Origin: a virus
Length of the DNA stretch: 64,000 nt
Strand: one strand, 5' to 3'
Virus record (IMG/VR): IMGVR_UViG_3300025132_000023
Location: 1 to 64,000 of that record
Below, in pieces: positions 56,680 through 62,124 of the stretch; within the stretch, counting starts at the first letter, position 1, and each line of letters begins with the position of its first letter. The translations under genes were made by a program, and so were the position numbers. The notes below the pieces were generated by a model. The model worked only from the letters and a program-made list of their open reading frames with translations. It was not told where the DNA came from and did not search any database.

Positions 56680-57616
56680 TGTCTATTAGGACGTATTACG
56701 GTATTACAAGGAGTAAACGCCAGCACTTGCGCGGTGTTAATAGAACTCTATTCATAAATAGAGCCTAAGCGGTAGTTCGTAGTTAACACAGCGGCAGGGT
56801 GCTTGGTCGTTTACTTCCTTGTAATACCCAAATGTCCATATAAGACATTGCCCGATAAATGGGGATATATGCCGTTACACTAACATGAAATGTATTCACT
56901 CCGTTGCATTGGAGAGCAAGAGTAAATTCCGGGACGTTTAGACTCTTGCTTTAGCAATCCCTGCACATTACTCTGCTCTCCAATCCTCTACGTTTACATA
57001 CATTTCATTACACTACCATATGGTTACTTAGTCATGGAGTAAGGCAAGAATGTGCGTATTCAGTCAGGCTCCTAAGAGTCTGAGTCTAAATGTGGTGAAT
57101 ACCGCATTCTTGCCTTACTCCGAGCAAGATAATCCCATATCGGGTTCTTTTGATTTATGGTCTGTCTCAAACAGTTCAGATGCTAATCATAAACTTTTAG
57201 CAGAGACAGTACCGCTTAGGCTGAGTCTTACGACTCCCTTATGCACGCTAACTACCTCCGGCTGTTATCGTACCGCTAAAAGATTATGTTAACATCATCA
57301 CAACTCACCAGACCTTTTCTTTTTTAATTAACAACCATATGGTTTAGTAAGTGGTTGGTTTAAGGCGGGAACCTATGTAGAATGTTAAACACGGCTGTTC
57401 TTAAGAACGAGCCTAAGCGGTAGTGTTGGAAATTCTACCGGGTTCCTCGCCTTAAGCACAACCCTACATAACCAGACATCGGGTAACATTCGGTTAATCC
57501 CAACATTCACTCCGTAGTATCTCCTGAACGGAACCTGTATTGACATTTAGATTAACGCTTAAGCGTTCATACTTGGTTCCCTTCAGGTTATCTCACTTCG
57601 TTCATTTAACCTCACT
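56680..57616. repeat. Three double-hairpin non-coding units (U1-U3)
   Basis: Long imperfect stems, e.g. GGTATTACAAGG 56700/CCTTGTAATACC 56817 and GGAGTAAGGCAAGAATG/CATTCTTGCCTTACTCC at about 57036-57121, each with the conserved loop motif. Confidence 0.85.
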
Positions 57617-57664
57617 ACCATATGGTAGGCTGTGCTTTGCTAACAGAATGCCCGATAACGGGAC

Positions 57665-57907
57665 TTACTTCATTGTTACGATTTTACAGCAATTACCCAT
57701 TTTTACTCTTAAATCGCCTAATTCCATTCCGCAGTTATTACATATCTCAATCATTATTTTTACATCCATTAAACCAGCACCAATAGAACGAGGAATCACA
57801 TTCTTTACAATCAGGAGGGAGAGTATCTCTCATTCCTCTCCCCCCTTTTTACCAATAGCATATATTCTACAAAACTCTGCATGAGCCTTTAACAAGTTCC
57901 AACTCAT
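57665..57907 (-). CDS. Three coupled micro-ORFs (57830-57907, 25 aa; 57747-57833, 28 aa; 57665-57754, 29 aa)
   Basis: MSWNLLKAHAEFCRIYAIGKKGGEE; MRDTLPPDCKECDSSFYWCWFNGCKNND; MIEICNNCGMELGDLRVKMGNCCKIVTMK; each start overlaps the previous stop. Confidence 0.55.
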
Positions 57908-58626
57908 TCTTCTTCCCCCATTACAAGTTTAGTTGTTTCTGGGGAGCATTGATATGAAGCCTCACTAATTATCTTCGTTTCGCAATCAACAGTATGTGTT
58001 ACTTCACAAGCACTTAATTCTGTAAGGGTACTTTCTACTGCCTTGCGTATTCTTAGCATCTCTGCCAATGGGACTTGAACAACTCTATCTTCTACTGCCT
58101 TTCTATCTGTTATTGACTCCACTTCATAAGTAATCCAAAAGGTTAGAGTGTAGGTATGACCGTAATTATCAAGTCTTGTTAACAAAGTTACGTTATCGTC
58201 ATATTTCAGCATGGCTCTACCATAAAAGGACTGTGTGCCATTAGTAGGCCCAAAGTAAATACCTAGATATGGGCCTCTTACGCGCATCCACTTATCCATA
58301 GTCTTTGTAGTCTGAACTACGGCTACATCAGTATTAATACCATAGTCTGTCAATCCCTTCTGTGCTAGTCTTGCTTGACTACTGTAATCTAACTCCATAA
58401 GGACTTGACCGTTTTCATCAGTTACTGCATAAGTAGTGGTTGTATCGTCCGTTGATTGAAAGCCGTATAATCTAGCATCATCCTCAGGATTATCATAGTT
58501 ATAGTTACTAGTCTGTGCTATGCCTCTATCATACAACATACTCTGCACCTTATTAGGGTGAAAGTTGACTTCTGACATATCTGTATCAAAGACTATTTCC
58601 ATTTTTCTCTCATAGATAGTCATCAT
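57904..58626 (-). CDS. Hypothetical protein (cassette 1)
   Basis: 240-aa ORF; AGGTGA RBS; ATGA overlap with the upstream gene. Confidence 0.7.
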   Translation of the reverse strand: MMTIYERKMEIVFDTDMSEVNFHPNKVQSMLYDRGIAQTSNYNYDNPEDDARLYGFQSTDDTTTTYAVTDENGQVLMELDYSSQARLAQKGLTDYGINTDVAVVQTTKTMDKWMRVRGPYLGIYFGPTNGTQSFYGRAMLKYDDNVTLLTRLDNYGHTYTLTFWITYEVESITDRKAVEDRVVQVPLAEMLRIRKAVESTLTELSACEVTHTVDCETKIISEASYQCSPETTKLVMGEEE

Positions 58627-58826
58627 TCATCACCTATCGCTTCAACGTAGTCTGATAGTGCAGATTGCATATCAGCCATTACTTCCTTTAGGTTATCACC
58701 AGATACTCGTAGTTTGCTAATACATAGAACAAGGGCAGACCCCGATTTCATATGCTTAACTTCTAGCACGTATTTTGGCTCAGTTATTGGTATTGTTTCA
58801 TTATTCTCGTTCATCATTTGAATCAT
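58623..58826 (-). CDS. Small hypothetical protein, probably leaderless (cassette 1)
   Basis: The track start (58880) lies inside the palindrome; ATG 58826 is about 25 nt downstream of the TGATATAT box. Confidence 0.55.
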   Translation of the reverse strand: MIQMMNENNETIPITEPKYVLEVKHMKSGSALVLCISKLRVSGDNLKEVMADMQSALSDYVEAIGDE

Positions 58827-58885
58827 TCTTATGTTGGGAGATGAATATATCAGGTGAGTGTTAGCAAAGCACACTACCATATGGT
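58824..58885 (-). promoter_or_regulatory. Cassette promoter: ACCATATGGT-n-CTTTG-n-CACCTGATATATTCA-n-CATAAGAATG
   Basis: Nearly the same element recurs at about 59979-60041; variants at about 59540-59586 (-) and 61173-61212 (+). Confidence 0.6.
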
Positions 58886-58931
58886 TTGCTTTGCGTTAAA
58901 CCGGAGAGGTGGAGAGGGGCGCAAAACCCAC

Positions 58932-59471
58932 CTATTCCTCCTCATCGCCTCCGATGAAGGATACCACAGGATAACCGTTCTCATCATAAGAACCATCCCA
59001 ATGGTATTTCTTTGACATATCTCCGTTTGCGTGTGCATTGAATGCCGCATTAAGGAACAATCGCTCCTTCTTCACGCCATCCTTAGCAAAGACAGTTTCA
59101 CCGTCTGTTAGGGTGTTGTAAAGAACTCCACCCGACTTACCGTGGGTTCTTGCCGTAGCATAAACCGCAGGATAAACCACATCGCGTAGGCTGATGTAAA
59201 GCGTATCATTAAGGTAAAGGTCGAAGGAAGACTTCGTTGCCGTATCCATAAGGGACTTTCGGCCCTGTCCAATGGGCGAATTTGCCACATCGGTGAATAC
59301 ACCTACAATGCTGTTCCAATATCTCTTACGAGTGCTTGGGTTAGCATCACCGAGAGCGAACATTGAACGCACAATCATTGCCAAATCGCTTTGGTCTGGA
59401 TTAACTGCGAACCACTCTTCAAGGTCAGTTTTCTTTGTTTCCCACTTGCTGTCATCTATTTCATTACTCAT
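58932..59471 (-). CDS. HGKS-motif protein, paralog A (cassette 2)
   Basis: 179 aa; aligns by eye with 61278-61787 (W..K, GD.N.STR...NSI, R.HGKS.G, WDGS). Confidence 0.75.
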   Translation of the reverse strand: MSNEIDDSKWETKKTDLEEWFAVNPDQSDLAMIVRSMFALGDANPSTRKRYWNSIVGVFTDVANSPIGQGRKSLMDTATKSSFDLYLNDTLYISLRDVVYPAVYATARTHGKSGGVLYNTLTDGETVFAKDGVKKERLFLNAAFNAHANGDMSKKYHWDGSYDENGYPVVSFIGGDEEE

Positions 59472-59601
59472 GTTATCAATCTCCGAAAAGGTTTGATAGG
59501 TTTGCGCCCCTAAAATTCCTCTCCATTATTATAATTCGGTATGAACATATGAGGTGTGTTTAATACAAAGTAACACACCATATGGTTTTACTTTGTGTCA
59601 A

Positions 59602-59981
59602 AAACCAGACGGGAGAATTGCTCAGATTTAAACATGGGCTAAACTACCGTGATTCCATGTCTGAGGCTTACGATTCTCCGCTAAGAGTCTGAATGGGTTT
59701 TGTTTCGTGCTTTCCTAAGGCACTCTCAGACCCGACTGAGCAAATGAAGTGGATATTGGACTCTCTTTCGATTACCAATAAAGACGCATGGGCGTTAGTT
59801 CTACATATCTTTGAGTATACAGTTCTAACCCGCGCTTACCCCGTATTACCCCGCTAAGGGTGTTGTCCTGCCTTTCCTTTGTAAGAACGACTCGGTGGCC
59901 CGCTAAGGCCCAATACGGTTGCTTTACACCCTAACGATGGTGTTATTCAGCCAATCCGTGGTGACTCGCGAAGGTCACCAT
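59602..59981 (-). ncRNA. Putative ~380-nt structured non-coding RNA (cassette 3)
   Basis: Lies behind the same promoter as cassette 1; only a 12-codon ORF follows the ATG; many GC-rich hairpins, three capped by an identical UUAGCG loop. Confidence 0.55.
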
Positions 59982-60041
59982 TCTTATGATTAAGGGTGAA
60001 TATATCAGGTGCAATTGACACAAAGTATCACACCATATGGT

Positions 60042-60950
60042 TTAGTAAGTATGCAAGTTAAACTTGCAAAGGGAGGGAGTTAAACTCAGGTGTAAGGGCC
60101 AAAGGCCTAATCTAAATGTTGCCTGAGTGGACTCCTCAGTTTGCAAGTTTAACGCCAGCATCTACATAACCAGATTTGAAAATCTGGTACTGGGTTATCT
60201 TGCATCGGCTAAAGGTAGACTATGAGCAGCACGAACACTAAGGCTCGTATTCTTAGGAACACGCCTTGCTGCTACTATTCTACCTTTAGACGCTGACTAA
60301 GTAACCTTAATACCATATGGTAGTAGAAAGGTCTTTTTAGTATATTGGTGCTATAAGAATAATATATATGTGAGTTCAAACTCAAGCCTAAGCGTTCATA
60401 TAAATTATTGTAGTTGCGTGCAACTGCCCTCTTATAGTGCGAATCTAATAAAAAGCATATAGAAGTCATCTTTTTACGCAGTAAAACGGGGCTTATTTTT
60501 GTAGGCTTTCAAGACCCCAATTTTCTCTGGTATGGTTATCTTGCTCCGAAGTGTATTCTGTTACTTGCAGCAACCACACTCAGGCTCGTAATCTTAGGAC
60601 TACGACTTGCTGCAATTAACAGCATACACTCCGTTGACTAAGTAACCTAATACCATATGGTTTGATAAAGTGGTTTGCGTTTAGACGCTAGTTTACAGAC
60701 GCAAAATCTACGGTCTGGTTTAGTAACAAGAGGTCACCAAAGTGACAATCTAAATGTCTCGCCAGTTAATCAACCAGAGCGTAGAGTTTGGGGCTTAAAG
60801 TAGCGTCTAAACGCATAACCCATATCATTCCCGATAAATAGGGTATGTATTCCACATAGCGAAAGCCGAAGGAGATAAACCTATGAACACTTAGGTTCTT
60901 GTTATGACAAGCCCTATGTTCACCTCCTTCAACCTCGCAGTTCCATCATT
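60042..60950. repeat. Three double-hairpin non-coding units (U4-U6)
   Basis: e.g. GTTAAACTTGCAAA/TTTGCAAGTTTAAC, TGCGTTTAGACGCTA/TAGCGTCTAAACGCA, GGTTATCTTGC...TGACTAAGTAACC (twice), with the same loop motif. Confidence 0.85.
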
Positions 60951-61277
60951 ACCATATGGTAGTATAATTAGAATTAGATGGGTTAATCGTATCTGTTAAA
61001 GTGTAGGATTCGGAACCCGTCCCTTGTGAATCGAATTAGCGGTCACCCGTGACCCCTGACCATTTTTCTTATTTCTCGTTTTTCCAAAACGCGATAATAA
61101 CCTTAACATCCTCGCAGAAAACGGCTTGTTTTTCCTTCTCGGCCTTTCAGACCCCTGAAAAACGCTATCATTACCATATGGTTCTGCTTTGCACGGAACC
61201 TCTTATATATCCGATGACTGTCCCAAGAATGCCCCCGAAACTTGGGCGCGAAAGAAAATACACATAGGTGATAAAAG

Positions 61278-61787
61278 ATGGAAGATATTGAGTGGGATTC
61301 AGTAAAGATAAAAGTAAGCACTATGCTTGAAGGTAACGCGGAAGTTGGAGACATTCCAGAAGACGTTGTTACTCTAGCACAGATGCTAATAACGACTGGT
61401 GACAATAACGCTTCAACGCGTGATTCGTTGACCAACAGCATTAAGGATATGCTAAAGCCCTACGCGGGTTATCCTTGGAAGAGAGGCAATCAGGGCATTC
61501 TACCTGCCGCAGCACGCGCAGTAGTGGATTCAGCAACTGATAACATCCGAGAGGCAGCAAGAGAGTTCTTTAACTCTACTTCGCAGTATTCTCAGCCCCT
61601 TCTACGAAAGCACGGAAAGAGCAAGGGTTCCCCTGTTTACTCCGATGCTGACGAGTATGCAAACGAACTTGCTTCAAAGGCTCGTAAGGCTGCAACACAA
61701 CTCTTCAAGGATGGAGAGTGGGATGGTTCGCTATCCGGTCTTGCTGCTTGTGCGGCTTATGACGACATAACCACGGAGGATGAGTAA
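61278..61787 (+). CDS. HGKS-motif protein, paralog B (cassette 4)
   Basis: 169 aa; AGGTGAT RBS; TTATATAT box near 61203. Confidence 0.8.
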   Translation: MEDIEWDSVKIKVSTMLEGNAEVGDIPEDVVTLAQMLITTGDNNASTRDSLTNSIKDMLKPYAGYPWKRGNQGILPAAARAVVDSATDNIREAAREFFNSTSQYSQPLLRKHGKSKGSPVYSDADEYANELASKARKAATQLFKDGEWDGSLSGLAACAAYDDITTEDE

Positions 61788-62124
61788 TTCTTCCTTCGTT
61801 AACCTAAGTTTCGGGGTGCAACTACCGGAGGGGGGAATAGGGCTTAAAGGCCTTATTTCCCTCTCCACTTCTTTCAGGTTTTTGCTGGAAGCAAAGCCCA
61901 GATAAAACCATATGGTAGTGTTTGGCTTCTTAACGGAGGGGGGCCGCGAGGGGTTCCGCACCGTTTATATGTTCTCACGAAAGGGTATGATTGCTTTCGG
62001 CATTAGCGTTCTATTAACGCAGAAAGAACCTAATCTGATAATTCCAGTATATGAAAGGACTCAGATTTATGGTGTAAAAAGTTACTGCCGTTAAAGAGTG
62101 GGGAAATTAATAGTGGACAATGAG

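Follow-up and report, generated by a model that had tools for sequence, protein, structure and literature searches.

A candidate stand-alone manA-type RNA gene in a group-B magrovirus of marine group II archaea

The locus and its viral genome

The window analysed here covers the opening 64 kb of a virus record in IMG/VR that is 96,167 bp long. The genome has a structural block encoding portal, terminase and tail-tube proteins, with one ATP-dependent ligase inside it, and replication genes that include a second, Lig1-type ligase, an RFC-like ATPase, a ribonucleotide reductase fragment and a family-B polymerase (PolB) split over two genes. A tRNA-Leu is also encoded and was the sole match when the whole window was scanned against Rfam at the gathering threshold, and the relatives of the capsid protein within the phage collection were haloarchaeal tailed viruses only. 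The same gene set was listed by Philosof et al. (PMC5434244) for the group-B magroviruses of marine group II archaea, the features in common being the split PolB, RFC, the two ATP-dependent ligases (one in the structural block), the tRNA-Leu and the halovirus-like capsid. Gene content places the host genome among the group-B magroviruses, which are tailed viruses infecting marine group II archaea.

The divergent structural and replication blocks are separated by a 5-kb stretch (57015-61916), which contains the minus-strand cassette studied here (Table 1). The original prediction had proposed an RNA of about 380 nt at this cassette, stating that it repeats the promoter of another cassette, opens on the minus strand with a particular hairpin and has no sizeable ORF. 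These observations were borne out: CACCTGATATATTCA with CATAAGAATG is found at 59997-60011 and at 58842-58856, the hairpin GGUGAC-cuucgcga-GUCACC is present (59979-59960), and the cassette has no sizeable or conserved ORF. A reading frame kept by the homologues had been named as the outcome that would speak against an RNA; instead, the longest stop-free frame shifts in strand and frame between relatives, and no frame is common to them. Two short frames were considered and rejected, namely a 12-codon frame from the 5' AUG, which changes in frame and length in loci L002 and L004 and has no AUG in L019 and L020, and a 36-aa frame over the near-invariant block of the 3' domain, which is without third-position variation and is broken by indels.

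PHROGs and Pfam gave no function for the neighbouring 179-aa, 169-aa, 240-aa, 85-aa and 112-aa products, and the gene context is thus uninformative as to the role of the RNA. A distant paralogy links two promoter-bearing cassette genes, 58932-59471 (minus strand) and 61278-61787 (plus strand): their products are 22% identical over 117 aa (E 2e-6) and have an HGKS motif in common, and neither matches a Pfam or PHROG family.

Table 1. Coordinates of features at and around the RNA locus (window positions unless a related locus is named)
Feature	Position	Strand	Remark
Upstream ACCATATGGT palindrome	60032-60041		followed by ACTTTGT at 60020-60026
Promoter-like core CACCTGATATATTCA	59997-60011	-	followed by conserved CATAAGA up to the predicted start site
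manA-type core, nine helices	59746-59980	-	RF01745 match; model R1, 272 bits
P1 hairpin	59960-59979	-	covarying stem
P2 closing helix	59954-59957 with 59751-59754	-
P3 hairpin	59927-59942	-
P4	59913-59918 with 59841-59846	-
P5 hairpin GGCC-UUAGCG-GGCC	59897-59910	-	loop L5 at 59901-59906
P6	about 59866-59891	-
P7 hairpin ACCC-UUAGCG-GGGU	59848-59861	-	loop L7 at 59852-59857
P8	59781-59837	-
P9	59755-59779	-
3' domain, about 140 nt	59605-59745	-	window clade only
Near-invariant block, 50 nt	59691-59740	-	hairpins, A-rich linker and ACCC
Third hairpin CUC-UUAGCG-GAG	59676-59687	-	outside the manA core
Composite terminal stem-loop	59612-59679	-	helices Hc, Hd and He
T5 run	59600-59604	-	predicted archaeal-type terminator and RNA 3' end
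Downstream ACCATATGGT palindrome	59577-59586		inside extended hairpin ACAAAGUAA...UUACUUUGU
Paralogous ORF-free unit	60170-60325	-
Paralogous ORF-free unit	60510-60665	-
Paralogous ORF-free unit	57011-57170	+
Paralogous ORF-free unit	57330-57490	+
ORF-free manA 3' flank	L019:3281-3878	-
ORF-free manA 3' flank	L020:545-901	-
ORF-free manA 3' flank	L015:1707-2173	+
ORF-free manA 3' flank	L018:2383-2600	+

Membership in the manA family

In an E-value-mode search of 2 kb, the 5' 235 nt of the predicted RNA matched Rfam manA (RF01745) over model positions 1-192 with 46.4 bits (E 3e-10). The curated gathering cut-off of RF01745 is 55.2 bits, and since the window RNA falls short of it, the gathering-threshold scan of the whole window returned no manA match. 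The Rfam/Infernal scan that the original prediction had proposed as a check thus led to a known family, below its gathering cut-off, and its statement that the RNA was not recognisable as a known family did not hold.

Related loci were gathered via the neighbouring 179-aa and 223-aa proteins. The manA match was full-length (192 of 192 model positions) in the window and in all eight related loci with such a match, where the RNA was always found at the equivalent cassette position. L020 (86.1 bits) and L019 (84.7 bits) scored above the cut-off and L015 was borderline (54.3 bits), followed by L018 (50.2 bits), L002 (46.9 bits), L014 (44.0 bits) and L004 and L005 (32 bits). Scores from 32 to 86 bits at one syntenic position thus form an unbroken series from canonical to divergent manA members. 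The conserved junction nucleotides were matched in the cmscan alignment (CUGAAUAA, GUAA, AA, GGUA, the P9 loop GGUA..UCC and the CAC tail), and continuity with accepted members is also seen in the cassette position and promoter flank, which equal those of the above-threshold manA copies.

The manA alignment published in 2010 includes the GOS scaffold JCVI_SCAF_1096626939122/184-790 with the 5' flank ACCAUAUGGU...CACCU (PMC2864571, manA.sto). This flank, with the magrovirus palindrome and promoter, carries the same ACCAUAUGGU and CACCU as L019, so that at least one member of the alignment, among the entries listed, has a magrovirus-type flank, and more may exist. A magrovirus copy was thus already in the manA family seven years before magroviruses were described.

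Taken on sequence and alignment, the RNA's 5' part of 235 nt represents a divergent homologue of manA (RF01745) and not a new class. What is particular to the locus is the host group, which is unreported for manA, the unusual stand-alone layout and the added 3' domain. A literature search found no paper linking manA or riboswitches with magroviruses.

Conservation of the core fold

The core retains all nine helices of manA along with its conserved junction nucleotides, and covariation lends the fold strong support. A covariance model, R1, was built from five window-clade sequences with the manA helices mapped onto the window. R1 found a single copy across the whole 96-kb genome, at the locus, and recovered L015 and L018 (E about 1e-11); with default filters it did not reach L019 and L020. 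In an alignment of seven sequences (A4), 94.9% of the cells held standard pairs, compared with 71% for shuffles, none of which out of 500 reached the A4 level, and 35-47% for slid controls; this alignment was fitted to the R1 model and its pair counts consequently favour structure, but the margin is large. Double-sided (compensatory) changes were present in 39 of 60 pairs, with at least one such pair in each of the 12 helices, and the comparison of homologues for covariation proposed in the original prediction therefore came out in favour of a structured RNA. The P1 stem appears in relatives as GCCAAC/GUUGGC, GCCGGG/CCCGGU and GCUGAC/GUUAGC, and covarying pairs make up three of four in the P5 stem and four of four in the P7 stem. 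The minimum free energy of the whole RNA was not better than that of shuffles (z = -0.38), so the support for the structure comes from covariation and not from folding energy.

Searches by blastn with the locus and with a canonical magrovirus manA gave no meaningful matches in the phage collection. A metagenome scan with an invariant 21-mer contributed a single new variant (L026) and a truncated copy. The pattern TGAAYAACACC..GGTGTAA was found in 32 stretches of viral contigs, where R1 matched only known contigs and gave one weak hit. More than 20 unrelated viral contigs (L029-L056), some of them 140-208 kb in size, have this P3-region pattern as well; unmatched by R1, these could represent either chance or distant manA-like RNAs of large phages.

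The 3' domain

The core is followed by a domain of about 140 nt that matched no Rfam family, the matches being at chance level when it was scanned alone as well, and whose minimum free energy was no better than random (z = +0.12). Its 50-nt block is near-identical in five of five distinct relatives, including L004, which is 69% identical elsewhere, and as this block is without third-position variation its conservation is not of the coding type. It holds the hairpins CUCAG-UCGGGU-CUGAG and GUGC-CUUAGGAAA-GCAC, and GGGU of the first loop (59730-59733) could form a pseudoknot with ACCC (59695-59698), both strands being invariant.

The helices of the composite terminal stem-loop occur in three sequence versions and are all maintained by compensatory changes. 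Hc, Hd and He read GGAGAAU/AUUCUCC, CUCAGA/UCUGAG and CAUGG/CCAUG in the window; GGAGAGA/UCUCUCC, CUUGGA/UCCAAG and CUUAG/CUAAG in L002; and UUGAAGGA/UCCUUCAA, CGAGUGA/UCACUCG and GGGG/CCCC in L004. A further helix of the minimum-free-energy fold, GGGUCUGA/UCAGACUC, was rejected, being broken in L002 and L026.

Three identical UUAGCG hairpins had been the central feature of the original prediction, and all three are present at the positions it gave. The loop of the third, however, is CUAGCG in a relative of 97% identity, CCCAAU in L002, CCAAA in L026 and different again in L004, and the GAG strand of its 3-bp stem also takes part in the 7-8-bp long-range covarying helix Hc, so that of the three identical loops two are conserved and the third is a coincidence. 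From these alignments the third hairpin is probably not a stable element. It and Hc are mutually exclusive pairings, an arrangement that would fit a switch too.

Transcription is likely to terminate in the T5 run at the end of the domain. The corresponding run is T5-T6 in L002, L003 and L026 and TTTATT in L004.

Promoter-like elements and the palindrome array

In seven of seven loci with an intact CACCT, the C of this box and the A just ahead of the RNA's first UG are 30 nt apart, and L014, where AACCT replaces CACCT, has the same 30 nt, so that the promoter spacing is fixed in eight of eight loci. No sigma-70-type promoter was found on the minus strand at the locus, and CACCTGATATATTCA resembles, and may well serve as, an archaeal BRE/TATA-like box. 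The 15-mer CACCTGATATATTCA with its following CATAAGAATG recurs at the head of a protein cassette, and a variant copy (59542-59556), which comes directly after the downstream palindrome, heads the gene for the 179-aa protein (58932-59471). In the protein cassette an in-frame ATG (58824-58826, minus strand) stands exactly at the position of the manA-RNA start, 30 nt past the C of CACCT. This placement suggests the geometry of a leaderless archaeal mRNA, and with it a product of 67 aa and not the 85-aa ORF listed from 58880.

The palindrome ACCATATGGT has 11 exact copies in the 96-kb genome, all of them inside the 5-kb stretch between the two gene blocks, and in the eight related loci each manA copy has it about 50 nt upstream. 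It delimits the cassettes and probably acts as an operator. The equivalent region of related viral contigs has 3-14 copies, and each site belongs to a longer imperfect palindrome, CAAAG..ACCATATGGT..CTTTG. The RNA cassette is bracketed by a 13/13 inverted repeat (60015-60027 with 59589-59601); such apparently private inverted repeats flanking the cassettes are explained as the facing arms of adjacent longer palindromes.

Four paralogous ORF-free units of about 140 nt, every one starting at a palindrome, share GGTTACTTAGTCA, a long stem, the tip YCCTAAGA..ACGAGYCT.AG.G and GCAAGATAACC. They matched nothing in Rfam and may constitute a second family of RNAs in the array. Read on the plus strand, the P1 hairpin together with the TCTTATGATT after it (59958-59990) scored as terminator-like, which is probably incidental.

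Independent RNA gene or 5' UTR element

The RNA cassettes contain no ORF. A T5-T6 run follows 1-6 nt past the manA core in L014, L015 and L018, and the next palindrome in L014 is 23 nt away. The core in L019 and L020 runs on into 350-590 nt of conserved ORF-free sequence, and in L004 and L005 two extra cassettes lie between the RNA and the 179-aa gene. Altogether, canonical and intermediate manA copies have a 3' flank of 200-590 nt that lacks ORFs, is conserved among relatives and may hold further 3' RNA domains; the flank in L019 has an insertion of about 250 nt.

The annotation of manA as cis-regulatory supposes a location in a 5' UTR. That is not the arrangement found here, where the RNA has a promoter-like element and a T-run of its own and the next gene is separately promoted. 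With a promoter of its own and an oligo-T end, the transcript would act as an independent RNA rather than as the 5' UTR switch of a neighbour, and the layout of the locus favours an independent RNA gene.

A cis-acting riboswitch, in which the manA core would sense a ligand and the 3' domain would control termination or read-through at the T-run into the 179-aa gene, is an unlikely account of this locus. The motif was described as a candidate riboswitch in 5' UTRs (PMC2864571), and a same-strand gene does begin about 130 nt past the T-run. The GGAG strand can pair alternatively with the strand of the third hairpin or with AUUCUCC, and both the window and L004 have a further helix, UCAGAC/GUCUGG, right next to the U-run in the manner of an intrinsic terminator. 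This outer helix is broken in L002 and L026, however, the 179-aa gene carries its own promoter copy, the synteny of RNA and gene is not conserved in L004/L005 or L014, and the other magrovirus manA copies run straight into a T-run or into ORF-free sequence. Archaeal termination, moreover, requires oligo-T alone, and no manA ligand is known to have been found since 2010.

Apical loops and RNA-RNA contacts

The motif UUAGCG occurs three times in the 380 nt, compared with 0.07 expected at the genome-wide rate, and UUAG seven times compared with 2.4 expected, a count reached by 13 of 20,000 shuffles. The two conserved copies form the loops of P5 and P7. UUAGCG is invariant in L7 across all relatives of the window clade including L014, and is kept in L5 of these, again including L014, except in L004 (UAUAGUG). 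Outside the clade, L5 is UGUGGUG in L015 and L018 and GUCGUG in L019 and L020.

The manA consensus has the loops GUGGUG (P5), GAAA (P6) and uaACCA (P7), with P5 and P7 of the window aligning to their counterparts and L6 of the window being ACAA, not a GNRA loop. In the consensus L5 and L7 are complementary (UGGU:ACCA), and UCGU:ACGA in L019 is a compensatory change. In the window, by contrast, the two loops are identical, leaving for mutual pairing only UUAG:UUAG (two Watson-Crick and two G-U pairs) or GC:GC, and each is pairable with L3 (CGUUAG) over six contiguous positions; in L014, L3 has CUAA against UUAG. The 8-nt loop L1 holds the 6-nt palindrome UCGCGA, and L1 palindromes of the relatives are GCGC, UGCA and ACGU. 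L014, L019 and L020 have no palindrome in L1, and the occurrence of palindromes of at least 4 nt in four of six distinct L1 loops is a weak statistic (chance P = 0.023).

A recent cryo-EM study found manA RNAs to build RNA-only assemblies from pentamers in vitro, namely octamers, decamers and a T=1 cage of 60 subunits (bioRxiv 10.64898/2026.07.01.735769). The pentamers of both structural groups are held by intermolecular kissing of L5 with L7', with further contacts through L8-L9' or L3-L8' kissing loops and an L6 GNRA-receptor interaction; the assemblies were obtained outside cells, from highly concentrated RNA (bioRxiv 10.64898/2026.07.01.735769). The L5/L7 numbering of the preprint appears to correspond to the Rfam P5 and P7 loops, judging only by helix order and by the GNRA loop on the sixth helix. 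By analogy with these structures, the repeated conserved loops of the window RNA are probably interaction surfaces, and the potential pairing of L5 and L7 with L3 together with a palindromic L1 is suggestive, though not decisive, of RNA-RNA contacts re-wired in this lineage.

The original prediction had taken the three loops as a sign of multivalent protein binding, and the RNA accordingly as a sponge, decoy or scaffold. Repeated UUAGCG or UUAG loops would then titrate a host or viral RNA-binding protein, and it is true that both motifs are well above chance, mostly in predicted loops, and that the RNA has the layout of a stand-alone transcription unit. The third UUAGCG is lost even at 97% identity, however, no candidate binding protein was identified, and L5 and L7, the homologues of the conserved loops, are unlike each other in canonical members and pair mutually between molecules. 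Any multivalency is more likely, on the analogy with the solved assemblies, to be between RNAs, and a protein sponge is improbable; what remains of the proposal is an ORF-free, structured minus-strand RNA gene with a promoter-like element.

A DNA-level origin of the conservation, through a mobile or recombining palindrome-bounded cassette, would suit the bracketing by ACCATATGGT sites and the 13/13 inverted repeat and the varying cassette content between relatives, but is very improbable given that compensatory changes keep helices with G-U pairs readable on the minus strand only and that the match to an RNA covariance model is full-length, cassette mobility itself being compatible with an RNA product.

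Interpretation

The locus is best explained as a stand-alone, structured manA-type RNA gene of about 380 nt in a group-B magrovirus, probably self-assembling via its apical loops, a reading that we hold at roughly 60%. Transcription would proceed from an archaeal-type promoter belonging to the RNA itself, whose CACCT/TATA-like box precedes the first base by 30 nt, giving a minus-strand RNA predicted to start near 59981 and to end near 59602 in the T5 run, after the lineage-specific 3' domain. This RNA would probably join copies of itself through apical loops in the way of the manA RNAs seen by cryo-EM, the conserved UUAGCG loops corresponding to L5 and L7, that is, to the intermolecular kissing positions of the solved pentamers, and the L1 palindrome could contribute a dimer contact.

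More tentatively, and as a possibility that we would not yet favour, magrovirus manA RNAs could be independent early genes whose products, inside the infected archaeal cell, build RNA-only oligomers or cages by self-assembly, with contacts re-wired (identical L5 and L7 pairing with L3, and a palindromic L1) and with the 3' domain displayed on or enclosed in the assembly. The manA RNA has been an orphan 'riboswitch candidate' since 2010, and the cages of the 2026 preprint come without a biological context. Assembly in the infected cell, if true, would supply a biological setting for the cages formed in vitro, and one RNA architecture would then be serving viruses of two domains of life, which would argue against the riboswitch reading. 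A unit running from promoter to terminator with no downstream ORF in viruses of archaea, if such it is, would function independently of bacterial gene-control machinery and of a given regulated gene, and this would favour a role of the RNA itself, for example in assembly, scaffolding or sequestration. The magrovirus copies also constitute a natural series of loop variants, from complementary L5 and L7 to identical loops and with some palindromic L1, which can be used directly to test which contacts matter.

Comparison with known systems

The closest known system is the manA motif itself (RF01745; Weinberg et al. 2010, PMC2864571), with which the window RNA shares the order of P1-P9, the closing helix and the junction nucleotides (CUGAAUAA, UAA after P3, AA before P7, GGUA, the P9 loop GGUA...UCC and the CAC tail). 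Both are marine and virus-borne, and syntenic relatives of the window RNA score above the family cut-off. In contrast to the described motif, the window RNA scores 46.4 against a required 55.2 bits, has UUAGCG in both L5 and L7 and no GNRA loop in L6, and is enlarged by about 35 nt in P8 and by the 140-nt 3' domain. It is found in an archaeal virus instead of a cyanophage or gamma-proteobacterium, and apparently stands alone instead of in a 5' UTR.

The manA assemblies (Ren et al. 2026, bioRxiv 10.64898/2026.07.01.735769) have the same core fold, with loops at the L5-L7', L3-L8' and L8-L9' positions. The solved RNAs have lengths below 200 nt, whereas that of the window would be about 380 nt, and the canonical loop complementarity is not kept here.

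ROOL, GOLLD and OLE are large RNAs of unknown function that form homo-oligomeric RNA-only complexes, and like the window RNA they are ORF-free and often phage-borne (Kretsch et al. 2025, PMC12286853). The magrovirus RNA is much smaller and has no Rfam match to these families.

The array as a whole is reminiscent of the PeSL (promoter-early stem-loop) cassettes of T4-type phages, in which repeated units of a stem-loop and a promoter punctuate a hyperplastic region and bracket small, exchangeable cargo. The sequence of the magrovirus units differs from that of the PeSLs, and their promoter appears to be of archaeal type.
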